64,000 nt of DNA from Escherichia coli (GCF_030013595.1 NZ_CP122768.1); one strand, 5' to 3'. Shown: positions 9,085-64,000, numbered from the stretch's first letter. Numbers and translations are program-made. The notes: generated by a model not told the origin, from the sequence alone.

Positions 9085-9993
9085 TGCGTCCTGAATAACT
9101 GGCGCAACTACGGGTTTGGCCGGGAAGAGATATTTTCCCAACGTGACCAGTACCACTGCGAAGACAATTACGCCGAGCGCCAGCCATTCAATCTTCGACA
9201 GCGTCTCTCCGCCCAGTCCCGTACCCAGCAAGACCGCGACCACCGGGTTAACGTAGGCGTAGCTGGTGGCGAGAGCCGGACTGACGTTGCGGATTAAATA
9301 CATATAAGCGTTAATGGCGATAATCGAACCAAACAGCGCCAGATAGCCGACCGCAAGGAAGCCTGAAAGGGAAGGGAGCGCCGTCAGTTTTTCACCCGCA
9401 ATTATCGACGCGATCATTAACACCACGCCTGCCGCCAGCATCTCAATCGCACCCGCCATCATCCCTACAGGTAAGGTAATGCGCGAGCCATAAACCGAGC
9501 CAAACGCCCAGCTAATCGAGCCGATTAAAATCAGAATCGCGCCCCACGGATTGCCGCTTAAATTTCCACCGCTATTGAGCATGATGATTCCGGCAAGCCC
9601 AATGGCGATACCCACCCATTCCAGTTTGCGCGTTTTAATGCCAAACAGGCGGCTGAAGCACAGGGTAAAGAGGGGCACGGTTGCAACCACTACGGCGGCG
9701 ATGCCGGAAGGAACATTTTGATGTTCGGCAACCGTCACCATGCCATTACCGACAGCCAGCAATAACAGGCCAATCAGCGCGGCATTGAGCAACGGACGTA
9801 GCGGGGGGAGTTTGTGTCCGCGCAGTAGCAAAAATGCCAGCAATAAAATACCGGCTGCCAGGAATCGAACGCCCGCCATCATTAACGGAGGCCAGCTTTC
9901 CACGCCAATCCGAATGACAAAATAGGTTGAGCCCCAAATGATATACAACGCAAACAGCGCGCCAAAAAGCGGTAACAACTGGCGGAAACGCAT
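9073..9993 (-). CDS. yedA: EamA/DMT-family inner-membrane transporter YedA
   Basis: 306 aa, 10 TM, tandem EamA domains. Confidence 0.85.
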   Translation of the reverse strand: MRFRQLLPLFGALFALYIIWGSTYFVIRIGVESWPPLMMAGVRFLAAGILLLAFLLLRGHKLPPLRPLLNAALIGLLLLAVGNGMVTVAEHQNVPSGIAAVVVATVPLFTLCFSRLFGIKTRKLEWVGIAIGLAGIIMLNSGGNLSGNPWGAILILIGSISWAFGSVYGSRITLPVGMMAGAIEMLAAGVVLMIASIIAGEKLTALPSLSGFLAVGYLALFGSIIAINAYMYLIRNVSPALATSYAYVNPVVAVLLGTGLGGETLSKIEWLALGVIVFAVVLVTLGKYLFPAKPVVAPVIQDASSE

Positions 9994-10165
9994 AATCCCT
10001 CACGGTGGAAATAAAAAGGTGGGTCATAGTAAACGTGAAAATCATTCTGCTGGCGAGAGATATAATTGCACTTGATTGTTAAAAAAATGTTGACCTGTGA
10101 AGCAAGTATCAGAGCTGCCGTTTTTGCTTCATACTTACACCCTTCAACAATAAAAATGAGAGGGA

Positions 10166-11083
10166 ATGCTTTTGGCCGGGAGTAGTTTACTGACGTTGCT
10201 CGATGATATCGCCACACTGCTGGACGATATTTCCGTGATGGGCAAACTGGCGGCGAAGAAAACCGCCGGTGTATTAGGGGATGACTTATCGCTCAATGCG
10301 CAACAAGTTTCAGGCGTGCGGGCCAACCGGGAACTTCCCGTGGTCTGGGGCGTGGCGAAAGGATCGCTGATCAATAAAGTGATTCTGGTGCCGCTGGCGC
10401 TGATCATCAGTGCGTTTATCCCGTGGGCGATTACGCCACTGTTGATGATTGGCGGCGCGTTTCTCTGCTTTGAAGGGGTAGAGAAAGTGCTGCATATGCT
10501 GGAGGCGCGTAAACATAAAGAAGATCCGGCGCAGAGTCAGCAACGTCTGGAGAAGCTGGCGGCGCAGGATCCGCTGAAGTTTGAAAAGGACAAAATAAAA
10601 GGGGCGATTCGTACCGATTTTATATTGTCTGCGGAAATTGTCGCCATCACGCTGGGGATTGTGGCCGAAGCGCCGTTGCTTAATCAGGTGCTGGTGCTTT
10701 CAGGCATCGCGCTGGTAGTGACCGTGGGCGTCTACGGTCTGGTAGGGGTTATCGTTAAGATTGATGACCTGGGGTATTGGCTGGCGGAAAAATCCAGCGC
10801 ACTGATGCAGGCATTAGGTAAAGGGTTATTGATCATTGCGCCCTGGCTGATGAAAGCGTTATCGATTGTCGGCACGCTGGCGATGTTCCTCGTCGGCGGT
10901 GGGATTGTGGTACATGGAATTGCGCCGCTGCATCACGCCATTGAACATTTCGCCGGGCAGCAAAGTGCAGTGGTGGCGATGATATTACCGACTGTTTTAA
11001 ATCTGATTCTTGGTTTTATCATCGGCGGCATCGTGGTGCTGGGAGTGAAAGCAGTAGCGAAAATGCGTGGTCAGGCACATTAA
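10166..11083 (+). CDS. yedI: DUF808 inner-membrane protein YedI
   Basis: 305 aa, multi-TM, synteny. Confidence 0.8.
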
Positions 11084-11498: not shown

Positions 11499-14038
<2,540 letters not shown>

Positions 14039-14288
14039 TTACCAGGATGATTCTCAAAACAGCACAAATTATCAAAGATGATTTTTTCGGGAGCGATCCC
14101 GTTGACGCCAGAGCCACCAAGGGGTGACGCGCGTCACATTTCTATTCATAAGTAGCGTTAATCATTCATATCACGAATATTTTCTTGTCAGCGAAAAAAA
14201 TTGCGGATAAGGTGATGAACACATCAGATTTCCTGGTGTAACGAATTTTTTAAGTGCTTCTTGCTTAAGCAAGTTTCATCCCGACCCC

Positions 14289-14319
14289 CTCAGGGTCGGG
14301 ATTTTTTTATTGTGCATTC
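14289..14319 (+). terminator. rho-independent terminator (cccgaccc-cctca-gggtcggg + T7), possibly bidirectional
   Basis: GC stem followed by TTTTTTT on the + strand; lies at the 3' end of yodD (minus), which sees it as an A-tract before the stem. Confidence 0.5.
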
Positions 14320-14545
14320 AACGATTCACTTCAGAGACGCTGAAGTCATGAATATCCAGTTCGAAGGCATCCGCCAATTCACGCCATGTATGATATTCAC
14401 GTCCATCGACGCTAACGTGTTCAGAATCGTTCTGGCTGCGATGAACTTCGCTTTCGCTAATTTCATTGATCGCCGCCAGCAGGGCATCGACATCGACGCT
14501 GACCTCACGTTTTGCGGTATCGCTGTACTCTTTTGCGGTTTTCAT
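14318..14545 (-). CDS. yodD: stress-induced small protein YodD
   Basis: MKTAKEYSDTAKREVSVDVDALLAAINEI...; 75 aa, trimmed from the 80-aa ORF. Confidence 0.8.
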   Translation of the reverse strand: MKTAKEYSDTAKREVSVDVDALLAAINEISESEVHRSQNDSEHVSVDGREYHTWRELADAFELDIHDFSVSEVNR

Positions 14546-56608: not shown

Positions 56609-57019
56609 ATGACCACCATTTCAGGCAAATTAGAGTACCCGTCGGACAAAGGACACATAGACGACGGTAAAAACTATCTCGACGTCATTTTGTGGAATAT
56701 GAACGCCGGGCCACGTGCGCGCACTCGTGCGGTTTTTGTACCAAGACCCAAAGCAGGCAATTTTTCAACACCAGCTCAGCCTGCCCGTCAGGCATCCGTA
56801 GCCGCAGCGCCAGCAGTGAAATGTAAGGGTAAAACGCACATCGGGATCGCGATTCGCAGAAATGGTGAGCGGCAAGTGAAACTCCACGAAACAGCGACAA
56901 CCTGGTGTGCTTCACCGCATGAAACTTACGACAAGATAACCGGGCAGCGCATTGGTGCGCCTGGTCGCTGTCGCCTGCTGTTGAGCTCCATCACTCCGAT
57001 AGAAAAGAAAGGGGCGTGA
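56609..57019 (+). CDS. hypothetical phage protein
   Basis: 136-aa ORF with SD gaggaaag. Confidence 0.4.
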   Translation: MTTISGKLEYPSDKGHIDDGKNYLDVILWNMNAGPRARTRAVFVPRPKAGNFSTPAQPARQASVAAAPAVKCKGKTHIGIAIRRNGERQVKLHETATTWCASPHETYDKITGQRIGAPGRCRLLLSSITPIEKKGA

Positions 57020-57020
57020 T

Positions 57021-57257
57021 ATGACCGGGCAATCAGATTACCTGCCGCCCGGCTTACCACACAACCGCGCCAAATGGCCCCAGGAATACCAGCTTAAAGA
57101 GCACTACGACATGCGAGCGGCGGCGCTGATCCGCCAACTCTTTGAGAAACGTATTCCGAGGGGAAGCGTGATTGAGCAAATCGGAATGACGCCGGATACA
57201 TACCGGGAATTTTTCAGAGAGCGTCTGAACTACTGGAGAGGGGTGATGGAACAATGA
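57021..57257 (+). CDS. hypothetical phage protein
   Basis: 78-aa ORF tightly packed in the operon. Confidence 0.35.
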   Translation: MTGQSDYLPPGLPHNRAKWPQEYQLKEHYDMRAAALIRQLFEKRIPRGSVIEQIGMTPDTYREFFRERLNYWRGVMEQ

Positions 57258-57565
57258 AATACAAACGGTGGGTGCGTGCGGAAGTCGTAATCATCAAACA
57301 ATGTGCAGGCAGCATGACAGTTGAACGTATAGGGCAGCTTATTGGCAGAACCGGTGCAGCGGTACGCACAAAAGCGCGCGAGCTGAAAATCTGTATGTAT
57401 CTGCGGGGTAATTATCATCAGTCAGCGAAATACTGCCAGGAGGATATCGAGCTGGCAAGGGAATTACATCAGTCGGGTATTAATCGCCAGGATATCGCGG
57501 AAAAACTCGAAATGCCGATCGGAGCGGTGAATCAGTTTGTTTATTTTGAGCGGAGGATTTCATGA
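57254..57565 (+). CDS. hypothetical phage protein, possible HTH
   Basis: 103 aa, overlapping start/stop with neighbours. Confidence 0.4.
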   Translation: MKYKRWVRAEVVIIKQCAGSMTVERIGQLIGRTGAAVRTKARELKICMYLRGNYHQSAKYCQEDIELARELHQSGINRQDIAEKLEMPIGAVNQFVYFERRIS

Positions 57566-57786
57566 AAGAACTTTTTCTGGCATTTGTGCCCCGGTTTATT
57601 AATGACCAGATCGCACTGACTAATAATGGTGAACAATATGAAATTGCCTGCAGCATGGTGGATGTGAATCCTGGCGAACGGTATGACGCGATGTGTGACC
57701 TGAAAATATTTACCTGGCTGGGTTGGGCTATTCCGTGTGGAGAACCAACCAATATTCGCCCATTTGAGAGCAGGGAGGCTGTATGA
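57562..57786 (+). CDS. hypothetical phage protein
   Basis: 74-aa ORF, ATGA overlap. Confidence 0.3.
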   Translation: MKELFLAFVPRFINDQIALTNNGEQYEIACSMVDVNPGERYDAMCDLKIFTWLGWAIPCGEPTNIRPFESREAV

Positions 57787-57949
57787 GTGAATTGAAAATA
57801 CGAATGAACCCAAGTCGCAAGGCGATCAAATTTGCGCAGTGTGTCTTGCAGATGGCTGAAGGTGAATGTTATATAAAAGAGTGTCATGGATAACAAGGCA
57901 CTCACTATCAATGATTATCTGTTAAAAAAGCAATCGACAAGGAGTTGAA

Positions 57950-58207
57950 ATGCAGACTCAATTAAAGGTTAAAGGCGGTTATAGTCATTTTTTCTTCGCC
58001 AATATTGAAGTCTCACAAAGAGAGTCAAATGGCGGTTTGGTTGTCGTTAGGGATGTTAATATACCTATTACAACAACAACTCTCTCTCTGTTAGAGAATT
58101 ACGCTGTAGGGCAGGTGTTGACGTTAGAACAAAAGAATGGCGATTTTTTTGATGTGTATTACGTTGGAACTGATGGGAATAACTTTCAGTTTTCAACGCA
58201 CTGCTAA
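57950..58207 (+). CDS. hypothetical phage protein; its 3' end and downstream hairpin are duplicated at 63186..63420
   Basis: 85 aa with SD aaggag; followed by hairpin ggccctg-tgagc-agggcc. Confidence 0.4.
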   Translation: MQTQLKVKGGYSHFFFANIEVSQRESNGGLVVVRDVNIPITTTTLSLLENYAVGQVLTLEQKNGDFFDVYYVGTDGNNFQFSTHC

Positions 58208-58355
58208 TTTATCAAGGCCCTGTGAGCAGGGCCTTCGAAAGCCTACTAAAGTCTGTTTCATAGAGAGAGTTATTTGCGATTAAAAAGGTATTTGGTCACG
58301 ACCAGCACGATAGAGAATACATCTTTCAAAGTACCGCCCATATAAAACAGTTACA
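58118..58355 (+). repeat. direct repeat copy A (~235 bp, roughly 80-85% identical to 63186..63420) bracketing the cargo segment
   Basis: Shared blocks ttgacgttagaacaaaa...atttttttg.gatgt.tattacgttgga..tgatggga...ctaaagtctgtttcatagagagagtta.ttgcg.ttaaaaaggtatttggtcacgacca.cacga. Confidence 0.6.
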
Positions 58356-58479
58356 TATGCACTTGATGACTAAGCTGGCACCAGGTTAACACCATGCGCC
58401 AGCTTGAAGGAGACTTCAGTTATTGGTTTCTGAGGAAAGCGATTCTTGAAAGGGTCATTTGCGTCTGGCAGTCGACCAT

Positions 58480-58527
58480 TTTCTTGACTTCAGCATCTGT
58501 TCCTTTCTTGACTTCAGCATCTGTTCC
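58480..58527. repeat. perfect 24-bp tandem duplication (tttcttgacttcagcatctgttcc x2), encoding GTDAEVKK x2 in the lipoprotein
   Basis: Read directly from the sequence. Confidence 0.8.
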
Positions 58528-58649
58528 CTGCATTGAAACTTTACCGCACATAGCATCCTTAGTTTTGATCCACTGGCGCTGAGAAGGCAGCAACTTGAAC
58601 CGCCCCGGAAATCCTGGAGACTAAACTCCCTGAGAAAGAGGTAAACAGG

Positions 58650-58976
58650 ATGACTAAAAATACTCGTTTTTCCCCCGAAGTCCGTCAGCGGGCGATTCGT
58701 ATGGTTCTGGAAAGTCAGGATGAATATGACTCACAGTGGGCGGCAATTTGTTCCATTGCCCCAAAGATTGGCTGTACGCCGGAGACTCTGCGTGTCTGGG
58801 TTCGCCAGCATGAGCGGGATACCGGGGGCGGTGATGGTGGGCTCACCAGCGCTGAACGTCAGCGTCTGAAAGAGCTGGAACGTGAAAATCGTGAACTGCG
58901 CCGCAGTAACGATATCCTTCGCCAGGCTTCCGCTTATTTTGCGAAGGCGGAGTTCGACCGCCTCTGGAAAAAATGA
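58650..58976 (+). CDS. IS629 OrfA (HTH transposase accessory)
   Basis: 108 aa, leucine-zipper/HTH typical of IS3 OrfA. Confidence 0.85.
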
Positions 58977-59863
58977 TGCCACTGCTGGATAAGCTGCGTG
59001 AGCAGTACGGGGTCGGACCGGTATGTAGCGAACTGCATATTGCCCCGTCAACGTATTACCATTGTCAGCAACAGCGACATCATCCGGATAAACGCAGTGC
59101 CCGTGCGCAGCACGATGACTGGCTGAAGAAAGAGATACAGCGCGTATACGATGAAAATCACCAGGTATACGGTGTGCGTAAAGTCTGGCGTCAGTTGTTA
59201 CGGGAAGGTATCAGAGTGGCCAGATGCACTGTGGCACGTCTCATGGCAGTTATGGGACTTGCCGGTGTTCTCCGGGGTAAAAAGGTCCGCACTACCGTCA
59301 GCCGGAAAGCCGTTGCCGCAGGCGACCGCGTAAACCGTCAGTTCGTGGCAGAACGACCTGACCAGCTGTGGGTGGCTGATTTTACTTACGTCAGCACATG
59401 GCAGGGCTTCGTCTATGTGGCGTTTATCATTGATGTGTTTGCCGGATACATCGTGGGGTGGCGGGTCTCATCGTCTATGGAAACGACATTCGTGCTGGAT
59501 GCGCTGGAGCAGGCGTTGTGGGCCCGTCGTCCGTCTGGCACCATCCATCACAGCGATAAAGGCTCTCAGTATGTGTCACTGGCCTATACGGAGCGACTAA
59601 AAGAAGCCGGATTACTGGCATCAACAGGGAGTACAGGCGACTCGTATGACAACGCGATGGCTGAGAGCATCAATGGTCTTTACAAAGCGGAGGTAATACA
59701 CCGTAAGAGCTGGAAAAAACGTGCAGAAGTGGAACTGGCCACACTAACGTGGGTGGACTGGTATAACAATCGACGATTGCTGGGAAGGCTGGGCCATACT
59801 CCTCCGGCAGAAGCAGAAAAAGCTTATTATGCTTCCATCGGAAACGATGATCTGGCAGCCTGA
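58973..59863 (+). CDS. IS629 OrfB transposase (DDE; expressed by -1 frameshift with OrfA in IS3 family)
   Basis: 296 aa with DDE residues and rve integrase core. Confidence 0.85.
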
Positions 59864-60939
59864 GTTCACAGATAAAACACTCTCCAGGAAACCCGGGGCG
59901 GTTCAACTCTTTTTTCTTCGCCGGGGTTAACTTGCTCCAGACGGTATTCAAATCAGAGTCAGCATTTGCAAATGCCATTCGGGACTGATCAAGGCTTTCA
60001 GATTTTTGCGGCTGAAGTTGTGCCTGCCTCTCTTTTTGCTTCTCCGCCTCATACCTGGCCTGTTCCTGTGCCCTGAGTTGCACCTGTTGTTCCGCTTCAA
60101 TTTGACTCTGTTGGGCATCCTTAGCCTGCTGGATTTTCTGCTGCTCAACGATCGGGTTGATAATGGAAAGCGATGTCAGTAAAGCGGCGCCCACTGATAT
60201 CGGATTATCAGAAGAGGTTTTTACAAAAACGTTTTTCTGATCGTCGGTCGCCTGCACGGTGTAGGTGATACGCCTTGAAAAGGCGTTTGCGTTGTTCTCC
60301 AAAAACAGATTTTCCATTTGCTTATCGAGATTACGATTAAAATTCTTTCTGTAAGCATCTGAAAGCTGGACGTACTCGTTCGCAGGTAGAGTCATCGTCA
60401 CGGTCCCTTCACAAGTTTTCATTGTGCTGCCCGTGTCACTTGATGTTGTGGAGATTTCAGAGACGGCTAGTTTGATCTTGTCCAGTGTGCTTCGTTTGGT
60501 CTGATTAGTGACATCAGGGTATTTATCGACCTGTTCAGAGAGTCCTTCATAAGCAGATTTTTTTAATAAATCCATGAGAGCTGATTGGGTCATTTCCGAA
60601 GAACAACCGATCTCATCTTTTTTGTTATCACAGCCTGTAAGGGCAATGGCGAGTAAGAGTACTGAGTATTTTAATCTCATGAATTCCCTTTAGAGTAAGG
60701 ATTGGTTTTTAAGACGCGGTCTGTAATCAGTTCCGAGAGCTACAGTAAACAACGCTGAGCACTGAACGCATCACAGGCAAGGTAAAAGGTGATATCGGCA
60801 AAGGCTGTGAAACCTTTAATTCAACAGATGGGAACGGTATGCACAGGATCCTGTAACGACGCTCCCAAAACTGGAAACCTGTAAGGCATGTTTTCGCTGC
60901 TGAACTTAATATACGAACCTGCACTATCATGAACATATT

Positions 60940-61436
60940 TTATATCGTTATACCCCGAGTGATTGTGCCCGGCAATGGATAGTGTCCTGGAGGAATTATT
61001 TCTAATGTAAAAGGAAGATATTTAATTTCGATGTGGGATTATTACCTGTCTATAAGAACAATGACTTTATCTGGCAGTAAGCAGACATCTATTAGCTTAC
61101 TGAAGGGGGGCTGTGATTTGACCATTAACGGCATGAGATATATTGTCTATTGGTGATTGTTCTGAGGCCGATATCACGTTAACGACCAAGTAAAATAACA
61201 TGAAAAATTATTTATTAATGATTGCCAGCATTAAATGTAGTGATACCTCATTAGCAGGGTGCTCCGCAATGACTGCGATGAACTAAAAAATCAGTCATAA
61301 CCATGAAAAAAACAAGTGTATCAGCGAAATTAAATCTGGTGAAAGCATTTAATTACTTGTTAATGACGCAATAAAAACATACTATGGAAATGTAACAGCT
61401 AATCTACAGTTCTTGTCAATAGGGGCGCACAAGAAA
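60940..61436. promoter_or_regulatory. ~500-bp AT-rich non-coding spacer carrying divergent promoters for the lipoprotein gene and the NTase/DUF262 cassette
   Basis: No ORF of 60 aa or more; strongly AT-rich. Confidence 0.35.
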
Positions 61437-62027
61437 ATGTTAAATGAATTTAAGGAAAAGCTACTATCCGACGATATCCGCGATGTCTACCAACGATACC
61501 TTTTAGGACATGACATCTGGTATTTTCGGGAACAAAAAAAATCAATAACCTTTGCTAAAGATTATGATGAGTTTAAGCTATATATGTCTAAGAAGCTTGA
61601 AATTCATGTAAATAATATTGCAATTGTTGGAAGTGCTAAGATGGGATTCAGCTTGAGCCCTGATAAAAATTATCGAACATTTAACGATGAGTCAGATATA
61701 GACTTGGTTTTAGTATCCGACAGAATTTATAAATCTTCCTGGATGGCATTTATTGAATTACAATCAAAGAATTATTTGCCTGTATATGCTCCTGTAGCTA
61801 AAAATATTTTCAAAGGATTCGTGTCATTGAAGGAGTTAGATATTAGAGTCGATTTTTTTAATAAATGGTCCCGTAACGTTGAACCATTAAAAAAAGACAT
61901 TCAAACTATTTTTGGAATACCTAACGACATCAACTACAGAATTTATGACTCTTGGGAGTCCGTTGAACGCTATCACATAGCTGGGTTGAATAGTCTAAAA
62001 GATAAGTTACAAGGACAATTGATATGA
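61437..62027 (+). CDS. minimal nucleotidyltransferase-fold protein (Pol-beta superfamily; MNT/SMODS-like), 196 aa from ATG 61437 (ORF track begins at TTG 61413)
   Basis: Motif IAIVGSAKMGFSLSPDKNYRTFNDESDIDLVLV = hhhhGS...SDhDhhhh; low-GC gene. Confidence 0.55.
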   Translation: MLNEFKEKLLSDDIRDVYQRYLLGHDIWYFREQKKSITFAKDYDEFKLYMSKKLEIHVNNIAIVGSAKMGFSLSPDKNYRTFNDESDIDLVLVSDRIYKSSWMAFIELQSKNYLPVYAPVAKNIFKGFVSLKELDIRVDFFNKWSRNVEPLKKDIQTIFGIPNDINYRIYDSWESVERYHIAGLNSLKDKLQGQLI

Positions 62028-63082
62028 GAGCTATTGATCTAATTAAAGTTGAATCGAAAGACATTAAATGGTTGACGGATAATTTGAAATCAGGTGTTAT
62101 TACAGTTGATAATTCATATCAGAGAAAATATATCTGGCAGCAAAAAGACCAAGTGGCCTTAATTGAGACAATATTAATTGGCTACCCAATCCCTGAGATT
62201 TACCTTTGGGCAAATAATACTGATCCTGACACTGGAGATACTAAATATTCAATTGTAGATGGACAGCAAAGGCTAACCACAATCCAGCGATATTTAAATG
62301 ATGAGTTTAAGTTAAGCAAAGCAGCTATAGATGATAAAGAAGCCGACTATAGTGGGAAAATTTTTTCAGAATTGTCGGCAGATAACAAACGTGATTTTTG
62401 GCGATACCAATTCTCATCCAGATTTATTAATGAATCATTGAGATATGATGAGATTGCAAAGTTATTTTTACGTCTAAATAGAACAAATACTACGTTAAAT
62501 CCTCAAGAACTTCGTAATGCTGAATTTAATGGCGAGTTTTTAAGATTAGCCGAAGAAATTGCACAAAATGAATTTTGGGATAATTATAAGATATTTACTC
62601 AGTCAGATATCCGTCGGATGCAAGACATTCAATTCATCAGCACATTATTGATTTTCTTACGAATGGGTATTGAGCAGGATAATACACAAAAATCAATTAA
62701 TCGAGTGTATGATCAATACAATGAGAATTACCCTGAGGCGACTGAGGACAGAATTATCTTTAACGAAGTGTTAAGGATCATATCTCAAATTATCAACAAT
62801 AAACAAGTATTAGAATCAGTTGTAAAGAAAAAAGGCCATTTGTATTTTATATTTGTGCTGGCATACTATTATTTACAGCTTAGTAAATCTAAGCTTGTTG
62901 ATATGAATGTTATTAGTTCAAAGCTCGAGGATTTTTTTAATATTTATGAGTTAAATGAACAAGATAACCCCCATCCACTGGTTGAGGAATATAGATTCCT
63001 CAGCCAAGAGGGTTCAAAGAAGAGTCATAACAGACAGCGTAGATTTGATATTTTGAAAGAATTTTGCTCTTTACATGATTAA
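62024..63082 (+). CDS. DUF262 (ParB/Srx-like, GmrS/SspE/DndB-type N-terminal domain) protein with an uncharacterised ~120-aa C-terminal region
   Basis: Hallmark motif YSIVDGQQRLTTIQRYL; ATGA start/stop overlap with the NTase-fold gene. Confidence 0.7.
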   Translation: MRAIDLIKVESKDIKWLTDNLKSGVITVDNSYQRKYIWQQKDQVALIETILIGYPIPEIYLWANNTDPDTGDTKYSIVDGQQRLTTIQRYLNDEFKLSKAAIDDKEADYSGKIFSELSADNKRDFWRYQFSSRFINESLRYDEIAKLFLRLNRTNTTLNPQELRNAEFNGEFLRLAEEIAQNEFWDNYKIFTQSDIRRMQDIQFISTLLIFLRMGIEQDNTQKSINRVYDQYNENYPEATEDRIIFNEVLRIISQIINNKQVLESVVKKKGHLYFIFVLAYYYLQLSKSKLVDMNVISSKLEDFFNIYELNEQDNPHPLVEEYRFLSQEGSKKSHNRQRRFDILKEFCSLHD

Positions 63083-63185
63083 ATGACGAAAGTGGGTTGT
63101 TTATAAGAATTGAATAAACAACCCATCATTTTAATGTACTCTGAATCCTCTCATTCTTAGTGAAATATTGTTTTTAGAACACGTA

Positions 63186-63420
63186 TTGACGTTAGAACAA
63201 AAAATAGATTTTTTTGTGATGTATTACGTTGGAGTTGATGGGATAATTATATGTTTTCAATACATTGTTAATTTATCAAGACCCTGCGACTAAGGTGTTC
63301 GAAAATCGACTAAAGTCTGTTTCATAGAGAGAGTTACTTGCGTTTAAAAAGGTATTTGGTCACGACCAACACGAGGCCGAATACCTCAGTTTAAGTACCG
63401 CTCATGTACAACAGTAACGT
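63186..63420 (+). repeat. direct repeat copy B (degenerate copy of the 3' end of the 57950 gene plus downstream region)
   Basis: See copy A. Confidence 0.6.
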
Positions 63421-63603
63421 TTGCTGATAGTGTCGCATTATCTTGCAGAGGACGCAGGTTAAATAGAACAAGCATATGTACCTGGTTTTTGTAATATTGG
63501 GTATAACATATGCTTTATAGGAGCGCGCTCAATGACCAACCGAGAAAGAATCTCCTGACAGATACAGTTATTTTCACCCTCTCCATAACATAAGGGAGTT
63601 TTT

Positions 63604-64000
63604 ATGTCGGAAGTGAGTATCGTAGAAGACGCCCCACGCCCAGTAGTCGCCGAATTGGCAGATCTGTTACAAGCACAACCATTTCATCAGAATCAATATG
63701 ATAACTTATGTCGCTTTATGATTTATTTTTCCCTGGCTGAATCAAAGTTAACATCAATGGCTGCTGGCCTTGGTAGAACTGACGCACTGGCACAGGAACT
63801 GGTTGTGCATAACGGCATGGACAGTCAGACCATAGATGATTGCTATCGTTATTTTATACGACGCTATCGAGACAGCCCTGATAGCGATTACCGCTTCAAT
63901 AAACTGGCCCCGCCTGAGTATGTTAAGAATGCAATCAGAGAACGCTTTGTTACGCTACTTCAGATACAGTCTCCAACAATTGAAGATAAAATCAGCTTTG
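63604..64000 (+). CDS. phage protein, 5' partial view (ORF runs off the window end)
   Basis: ATG at 63604 preceded by aagggag SD; open to 64000. Confidence 0.4.
   Translation, partial: MSEVSIVEDAPRPVVAELADLLQAQPFHQNQYDNLCRFMIYFSLAESKLTSMAAGLGRTDALAQELVVHNGMDSQTIDDCYRYFIRRYRDSPDSDYRFNKLAPPEYVKNAIRERFVTLLQIQSPTIEDKISF

Follow-up and report, generated by a model that had tools for sequence, protein, structure and literature searches.

Direct repeats in an Escherichia coli leuZ prophage as apparent relics of a gene junction in a mosaic accessory region

The prophage and its repeat region

A 64,000-nucleotide stretch of the Escherichia coli chromosome (GCF_030013595.1, NZ_CP122768.1; hereafter the window, with positions counted from its first nucleotide) carries a prophage in which two imperfect direct repeats, copy A and copy B, enclose 4819 bp comprising an LprI-family lipoprotein gene disrupted by an insertion sequence (IS), a putative nucleotidyltransferase-like (NTase-like) gene and a DUF262/GmrSD_N gene. 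Comparison of the window with related loci (numbered with the prefix L) indicates that the two copies are probably diverged alleles of one scaffold junction in a mosaic hotspot, whose modules would be exchanged by homologous recombination in conserved landmarks. Each copy consists of the 3' end of one gene, X, a hairpin and the 3' end of a second, convergent gene, Y; X' and Y' denote their truncated remnants.

The window runs from uvrC and pgsA through tRNA-Gly, tRNA-Cys and tRNA-Leu(taa) to a tyrosine integrase and lambdoid-type early genes (cI/cro-like genes, YdaT, a replication initiator and a DnaB-type helicase), after which comes the repeat region. The prophage is integrated at tRNA-Leu(taa) (leuZ), and a 99%-identical E. 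coli chromosome supplies its continuation, in which DUF1367, a YbcO-like gene and antiterminator Q are followed by lysis, lambda-like head and P2-like tail genes. The repeat region is placed between the DnaB-type helicase and the Q antiterminator, and the repeats thus sit in the nin-equivalent region between replication and Q. Its features are as follows.

57950-58207, plus strand: gene X, 85 aa; its last ~30 codons (58112-58207) make up the left third of copy A
58112-58360: repeat copy A, comprising the 3' end of X, an intact hairpin and a Y' tail; weak similarity over 58090-58388
58214-58235: hairpin AAGGCCCTG-TGAG-CAGGGCCTT, with a 9-bp GC-rich stem, between the convergent ends of X and Y'
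58270-58350, minus strand: Y' tail of copy A, the last 26 codons of Y (LFYMGGTLKDVFSIVLVVTKYLFNRK) and its stop, with an in-frame stop ahead
58420-60680, minus strand: LprI-family lipoprotein gene, 315 aa when intact, lipobox LTGC, split by the IS
58596-59905, plus strand: IS3-family insertion sequence, 1310 bp, with OrfA (108 aa) and OrfB (296 aa)
61437-62027, plus strand: NTase-like gene, 196 aa from the ATG at 61437
62024-63082, plus strand: DUF262/GmrSD_N gene, 352 aa, overlapping the NTase-like gene
63180-63424: repeat copy B, comprising a frameshifted X' remnant (~63149-63271), a degenerate hairpin (63278-63299) and a Y' remnant; weak similarity over 63149-63462
63334-63414, minus strand: Y' remnant of copy B, reading ...LYMSGT, an internal stop, TEVFGLVLVVTKYLFKRK and a final stop
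63605-64000, plus strand: start of the h182 gene (182 aa), which always follows copy B and here runs off the window (L001 9128-9676, L007 9739-10287)

The two copies (58112-58360 and 63180-63424) align by blastn over 249 columns at 80.7% identity with three small gaps (E 2e-60). They are in direct orientation and were recovered alike by MAFFT, by a repeat finder and by blastn; the repeat finder, run on the window, reported one match of 185 nt at 80% (D1) and two at 86% (D2 and D3), spaced by 5064-5068 nt. Fainter similarity extends leftwards to ~58090/63150 and rightwards to ~58388/63462. When either copy was searched by blastn against the whole 64-kb window, A and B were the only two copies found, which together with the E value rules out chance or low-complexity similarity. 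The original prediction, which was made from the sequence of this stretch, had placed repeats of ~235 bp and 80-85% identity at 58118-58355 and 63186-63420, and alignment agrees with it to within a few bases. It had also described a sharp drop in GC content between the copies, and we find 0.31-0.34 over 61000-63400 vs 0.52-0.56 in the replication genes. The disrupted lipoprotein gene and the NTase/DUF262 pair that it listed between the copies were recovered by open reading frame (ORF) and Pfam searches. Identity between A and B is uneven: a 66-nt core (58245-58310) reaches ~95%, the X remnant and hairpin on its left ~78% and the sequence on its right ~74%.

Anatomy of the repeat unit

In each copy the plus strand translates into the C-terminal end of X and the minus strand into the C-terminal end of Y. 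Since the strands yield the C-termini of two different genes, the unit is the relic junction of a convergent gene pair (X 3' end, hairpin, Y 3' end) and not a pair of paralogous genes. The prediction that copy A holds the 3' end of the 57950-58207 gene together with a downstream hairpin agrees with the ORF list and with folding. Its further description of the copies as paralogous phage genes is not supported as it stands; the unit is an X/Y 3'-end relic in which both pieces are pseudogene fragments in copy B. On the plus strand, copy A carries the end of X (...VLTLEQKNGDFFDVYYVGTDGNNFQFSTHC, then stop) and copy B a frameshifted remnant of it. Searches of Pfam, PADLOC, NCBIfam and PHROG gave no match to the X protein; 1564 blocks of the assembly collection list exactly this protein, and an intact X is present in 3 of 5426 complete E. 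coli genomes.

The hairpin of copy A folds at -17 (plus strand) and -18.5 (minus strand) kcal/mol, with z scores of -1.75 and -2.17, and is probably a bidirectional transcription stop, though a T run is missing. The corresponding hairpin of copy B is destroyed and, at -6.5 kcal/mol, folds no better than shuffled sequences. A simple terminator scan called no intrinsic terminator at either copy. We also observed a 26-nt imperfect inverted repeat (58075-58100 and 58249-58274, 77% complementary and rich in CTCTCT/AGAGAG) that brackets the X end and hairpin; its right arm sits in the 29-nt patch of the single-copy junction described below, and it may be chance low-complexity sequence.

Gene Y encodes a 201-aa membrane-type protein (phrog_5346) and is intact only in related, mostly ST131-type prophages (L002 8205-8810, minus strand), where it follows a gene for an ImmA/IrrE peptidase that resembles CapP (PADLOC CapP, 2e-25). 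Both Y' tails diverge from intact Y at one codon (~174), and beyond it a further ~13-20 nt is common to both tails and to the LprI-adjacent copies of relatives. This shared break and the shared sequence beyond it suggest that both tails derive from one truncation event. A small ORF in the Y' tail was considered and rejected, as copy B carries an internal stop. Where intact, Y has a charged N-terminal part and a hydrophobic C-terminal end and is always paired with the ImmA/IrrE gene (L002 8205-9308, minus strand; also L008, L011-L015, L024, L026-L028, L031 and L035). The pair, which may be a regulated membrane effector module, is found after the junction in about 410-450 complete E. coli genomes, mostly ST131-like.

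Module borders and assortment

Module borders were taken as homology breaks in pairwise comparison of the window with its relatives. Breaks fall at 57802/57803, at 58270/58271 (exactly the Y' stop codon), within ~60850-61116 and at 63148/63149, and they divide the region as follows.

Up to 57802: conserved backbone, from the helicase through a 74-aa gene
57803-58270: slot 1, X and the hairpin in the window, an ORF6N gene in the ST131 type
58271-61116: conserved LprI block, 89-100% identical and present in nearly all relatives
61117-63148, plus strand: slot 2, variable and low in GC, with the NTase-like/DUF262 pair in the window
63149-63416: junction copy B, 79% identical, with shared indels, to the junction beside intact Y in L002, L013 and L015
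After copy B: slot 3, the h182 gene in the window, Y and ImmA in the ST131 type

L001-L005, L007, L016-L021 and metagenomic or viral contigs all share the backbone up to 57802 as well as DUF1367 and Q further downstream. The DNA between the repeats had been predicted to be a single cargo cassette; it resolves instead into the conserved LprI block with its IS and the variable slot 61117-63148. The left border of slot 2 is the region upstream of LprI, not copy A.

Both states of slot 1 occur with each of three slot 2 cargoes. X is found with NTase/DUF262 in the window, L018 and L021, with PD-T7-3 in L016 and L019 and with HNH + PD-T4-3 in L017 and L033; the ORF6N gene accompanies the same cargoes in L009, in L037 and in L029 and L036, respectively. 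The two sides of LprI therefore assort freely. In a mismatch map in 100-nt steps, the window follows the L016/L017 type from copy A as far as 60800 or beyond and the L009 type from 58400 or earlier, with 0 mismatches to the latter from 60900 onward; all types are ~98-100% identical across LprI.

Each repeat copy also leads a separate life. Irrespective of the cargo that follows, L016-L019, L021 and L033 carry copy A at 100% identity, and four of these (L016, L017, L019 and L033) are genomes without copy B. Copy B is 100% identical in L009, L010, L018 and L021; in L009 the left copy is only a 110-nt partial one, and the left side of L010 is not covered. As each copy is fully conserved in the absence of the other, the 19% divergence between A and B must be old, and the pair was not made by duplication or insertion in this lineage. 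Such separate conservation speaks against the in-place cassette gain originally proposed, and one crossover inside LprI would be the simplest source of the pair seen in the window.

A cargo-free variant with a chimeric junction

Three complete E. coli genomes have an intact X. Two of them are clonal pig isolates of the window type, and in the third, JNE151685 (L007), X is followed directly by h182, with no LprI, NTase-like or DUF262 gene. The same arrangement was found in GCA_013159505.1 (L020) and in a food-metagenome contig (L041). Up to 58250 the single junction of these three sequences equals copy A, and from 63344 onward, h182 included, it equals copy B; the last site diagnostic for A is 58244 and the first diagnostic for B is 58273, with the switch in between. 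Empty-site variants had been raised as a possibility when the repeats were first noted, and this one, A-like on its left and B-like on its right, confirms that expectation and bears the mark of recombination inside the repeat. In a sample of 25 X-bearing contigs the single-copy type is seldom seen, which mildly favours its being derived rather than ancestral.

A second, independent chimeric junction is the LprI-side copy of Escherichia whittamii (L025), which resembles the full junction of L002 on its left and the partial junction of L009 on its right and switches inside TTAAAAAGGTATTT. The two independent switches lie within ~45 nt, in keeping with the high conservation of the 66-nt core (~95% vs 74-78% in its flanks). 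E. whittamii was the only GTDB species representative to show the core pattern, and a search of the phage GenBank collection, distant mode included, returned no match to X plus copy A.

Cargo of the hotspot

Alternative cargo in related prophages, which had been suggested as a check on the prediction, occupies the same place in slot 2.

NTase-like/DUF262 pair: window, L009, L010, L018 and L021
232-aa protein: L002 (7044-7742) and many ST131 genomes
GIY-YIG protein and a 134-aa protein: L004, L024 and L026
HNH + PD-T4-3: L017, L029 and L033, with the HNH end only in L036 and with PDC-S31 and PDC-S39 also in L017
PD-T7-3: L016, L019 and L037

PADLOC matches in the hotspot slots comprise PD-T4-3 (6e-138), PD-T7-3 (4e-165), PDC-S39 (4e-265), PDC-S31 (1e-19), an NsnA-like protein (4e-41) and the CapP-like ImmA. 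PD-T4-3 and PD-T7-3 have been validated as anti-phage systems (PMC9519451). The locus behaves as a prophage defence hotspot, and its cargo is predicted to be protective. The 232-aa protein has no Pfam match and a weak PADLOC match (1.8e-5) to RTasTM, the DRT-associated transmembrane protein; it may be another defence-related cargo. Together with the chimeric cargo-free junction, the alternative cargoes bear out the predicted role of the locus as an exchange site for accessory genes, or morons.

The DUF262 protein of the window matches Pfam GmrSD_N (1e-24), PADLOC NsnA, a ParB-DUF262 protein, over residues 9-348 and, less strongly, PD-T4-2_A (2.5e-19). Its 196-aa partner matches nothing in Pfam, NCBIfam, PADLOC or PDB sequences. 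The "NTase" label, given to this gene as 61413-62027, is plausible and finds weak support in an invariant G65, S86, D87 and D89 with a nearly invariant S66 (a GS...DxD pattern) and in a confident AlphaFold model (pLDDT 91.6) with a weak match to a minimal-nucleotidyltransferase fold; the sequence libraries and the PDB sequence search gave it none. A conserved operon of the two genes, which usually overlap, occurs in Gammaproteobacteria and Bacteroidota (L043, L045 and L046-L052), including Teredinibacter and Ferruginibacter, in the latter near Band_7 and TIR genes, and the operon also lies in a Yersinia P2-like prophage (between gpA and portal) and in P2-like prophage remnants (between gpS and gpV). 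DNA similarity to copies elsewhere is limited to 61409-63103, and the two-gene cassette therefore moves without the repeats. For the same reason we rejected the possibility that the repeats are part of the cassette, the comparison covering P2-like prophages and other genomes.

A Menshen system needs NsnB and NsnC as well as NsnA (PMC12065111). Membership of the pair in this system (NsnABC) was rejected, since an NsnA-like protein is present while the NsnB ABC ATPase and the NsnC effector are absent; no ATPase or PIN/BECR gene was found in 61117-63148 or in the conserved pair elsewhere. The pair looks like an uncharacterised anti-phage system, and we regard it as a candidate. A promoter-like site lies in the cargo at 61118-61146, and promoter-like sites are fewer than in shuffled sequence.

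The LprI gene and insertion sequences

The product of the LprI gene matches Pfam LprI (2e-8) and phrog_5094 (3e-181), and intact alleles are present in L001 and L018. A perfect 24-nt tandem duplication (two copies of TTTCTTGACTTCAGCATCTGTTCC at 58480-58527) explains the 315-aa and 307-aa alleles of the gene. The IS3-family element within it has 26-nt terminal inverted repeats at 88% identity, a 3-bp target duplication (ACT, 58593-58595 and 59906-59908) and a frameshift pseudoknot (Rfam ALIL, 2.4e-31, at 58931-59047). It fits IS629 in size and ORFs and may be a copy of that element. L018 lacks the IS and is otherwise 100% identical to the window on both sides of it, which identifies the element as a late insertion into LprI.

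Insertions in the hotspot vary by strain. IS3-family elements are found in LprI (window, 58596-59905), in the X' remnant of copy B (L001 7373-8701, and L021) and between LprI and slot 2 (L003 6355-7568); an IS66 element splits LprI in L005 (5063-7479), and in L021, whose insertions lie at 9513-10721 and 13271-14499, an IS4-type element comes after LprI. The region seems to tolerate or attract IS insertions.

Origin of the repeats

On an experimentally supported view, temperate-phage mosaics arise mainly by divergence-tolerant homologous recombination, which leaves traces at fragment borders (De Paepe et al. 2014, PMC3945230). We propose that in this prophage family, which combines lambdoid-type early genes with a P2-like tail at leuZ, the X/Y junction and the LprI block serve as fixed landmarks of an accessory and defence hotspot with three variable slots around them, holding X or ORF6N (slot 1), the cargo (slot 2) and either h182 or Y with ImmA (slot 3). 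Earlier illegitimate events would have cut X and Y short and left their 3' ends as border relics, after which modules would be swapped between co-infecting or co-resident relatives by homologous recombination in LprI and in the junction relics, divergence being tolerated. The arrangement of the window, X-A-LprI-NTase/DUF262-B-h182, would then have arisen when an "X-A-LprI" phage and an "LprI-NTase/DUF262-B-h182" phage recombined once within the near-identical LprI. Once two direct copies of the junction were present, unequal recombination could remove or add the intervening 4.8 kb; the single-copy junction, which is plainly chimeric, could be either product or substrate of such an exchange. 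The IS3-family element entered LprI later, as the otherwise identical allele without it shows.

Several observations weigh against this reconstruction. The single-copy junction contains a 29-nt patch (58251-58279) in which 10 positions are unlike both A and B, themselves in agreement there, and which partly matches a third allele, TTGGACCGAGAGAG, found beside intact Y as in L002. The patch calls for a third parent or a different history, and a one-step deletion between A and B is thus not fully consistent as the origin of the single-copy type; its presence in all three single-copy sequences indicates one event. X and an intact Y were found together in none of the 5426 complete E. coli genomes, and a synthetic X-T-Y query reached a best coverage of 84%, so that the convergent X/Y pair taken here as ancestral is a reconstruction and not an observed arrangement. 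A Pfam search found no Rad52-like recombinase in the prophage or its early-left operon, the only candidate for a recombination function in the prophage being a 741-aa exonuclease-family protein, and recombination at the repeats is deduced from the alleles rather than directly seen.

Other origins can be weighed against the same comparisons. That a single cassette from LprI through DUF262 was gained in place, by Campbell-type integration of a circle or by unequal exchange, and created both repeats in the process appears unlikely. It would account for an end pattern typical of a single crossover, in which the left copy has an intact X and a truncated Y', the right copy a truncated X' and the right copy of the ST131 type an intact Y; for the cargo-free variant whose left half is A and right half is B; and for the identical 29-nt middle that A and B share and the single copy lacks, as if it came from a donor or from conversion at the crossover. 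The segment, however, consists of independently assorting modules, with LprI in nearly all relatives while slot 2 varies, and the NTase-like/DUF262 unit travels independently of the repeats. Genomes that lack copy B carry copy A and LprI at 100% conservation, copy B is equally conserved with ORF6N on its left, and copies that are 19% diverged yet each invariant across contexts are old alleles rather than the outcome of a recent duplication. Mobilisation of the 4.8-kb segment by a site-specific or transposition system, with the repeats as att-like or composite-element sites, is highly improbable. In its favour, direct repeats do bracket accessory genes and presence/absence polymorphism does occur at the repeat. 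The segment encodes no integrase or other recombinase save the transposase of the later IS, which has its own ends and target duplication; the repeats are 81% identical gene relics without inverted termini or target duplications; and breakpoints in relatives fall at 58271, 63149 and 63303 rather than at one core.

That selection keeps the repeat for a function, whether as a non-coding element (a bidirectional terminator, an insulator or a small RNA) or as a small ORF (a small hydrophobic peptide from the Y' tail) that travels with cassettes, is very unlikely. The contrast between the ~95% identical core and its 74-78% identical flanks would fit such a role, as would the strong hairpin of copy A and a Y' tail that in copy A starts with ATG and would encode a 23-aa hydrophobic peptide. 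In copy B, however, the hairpin is lost and the Y' frame is stopped internally. Rfam at E<=1 identified no structured RNA in 57000-64000 other than the ALIL pseudoknot of the IS3 element, the hairpin was not called by the terminator scan, and the cassette moves elsewhere without the repeat. The core coincides with the stretch that codes for the C-terminus in intact Y, and also with the crossovers observed, which explains its conservation. Exchange of modules between diverged alleles of one junction remains our preferred account. The gene-junction relic in the repeat, the modular nature of the flanked DNA, the reassortment of modules, the chimeric single-copy junction and the secondary arrival of the IS all emerge directly from the comparisons above.

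Relation to known systems

The region resembles lambdoid mosaic or moron loci in carrying unrelated gene sets at one place between backbone genes, with breaks at gene borders, short diverged homology at fragment edges, deviant GC content in the cargo and a nin-like position between replication and Q. Unlike those loci, its border is a recognisable relic of two convergent 3' ends and a hairpin, of which one genome holds two copies, 81% identical; there is also a documented single-copy allele that is chimeric, and the prophage joins lambdoid early genes to P2-like tail genes at leuZ. Rousset et al. reportedly described defence hotspots in P2 and P4 prophages in 2022. With such hotspots the region has in common a fixed locus, conserved phage flanks and changing anti-phage systems, and it shares the NTase-like/DUF262 pair with P2-like prophages, where the pair lies at gpA-portal and gpS-gpV; it differs in its backbone and locus and in that several slots surround one conserved lipoprotein gene, LprI. 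The concept of prophage defence hotspots is well established (Vassallo et al. 2022, PMC9519451), and we found no description of this leuZ hotspot in the literature searched.

The DUF262/GmrSD_N protein resembles Menshen, PD-T4-2, GmrSD and SspE defence proteins, and its NsnA match is full length. The pair differs from Menshen in that the partner is a ~196-aa GS...DxD protein, with neither NsnB nor NsnC, and from GmrSD in having no DUF1524 nuclease domain. Deletion or duplication between direct repeats, as in prophage or island loss, offers a further parallel, given 4.8 kb of bracketed DNA and a natural variant with one hybrid copy and no intervening DNA; unlike a simple direct-repeat deletion, the repeats are 19% diverged and the hybrid includes a 29-nt patch of a third allele.

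The locus is a clear example of known phage mosaicism and of a prophage defence hotspot, and neither a new kind of element nor a new mechanism. Its novelty is modest and lies in the anatomy of the border relic, in the LprI-anchored multi-slot leuZ hotspot and in the candidate two-gene NTase-like/DUF262 system. As a more tentative proposal, which we hold at somewhat short of an even chance, the 58245-58310 core (~45-66 nt, at the Y stop) and LprI would be the preferred crossover anchors of an undescribed multi-slot defence hotspot in leuZ lambdoid/P2-hybrid Escherichia prophages, and the NTase-like gene with its NsnA-like DUF262 partner, which also occurs in two P2-type hotspots and in Bacteroidota, would constitute an uncharacterised two-gene defence system.

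For the biology of temperate phages, the region offers an unusually readable record of how accessory and defence regions are rebuilt, since its border relics can be assigned to named genes and the flanking modules are found in nature in all combinations. The chimeric single-copy junction shows an exchange resolved within ~30 nt of a diverged repeat. With LprI and the X/Y junction as conserved anchors, E. coli prophages can be searched for further defence cargo, and the NTase-like/DUF262 pair is flagged as a candidate system.

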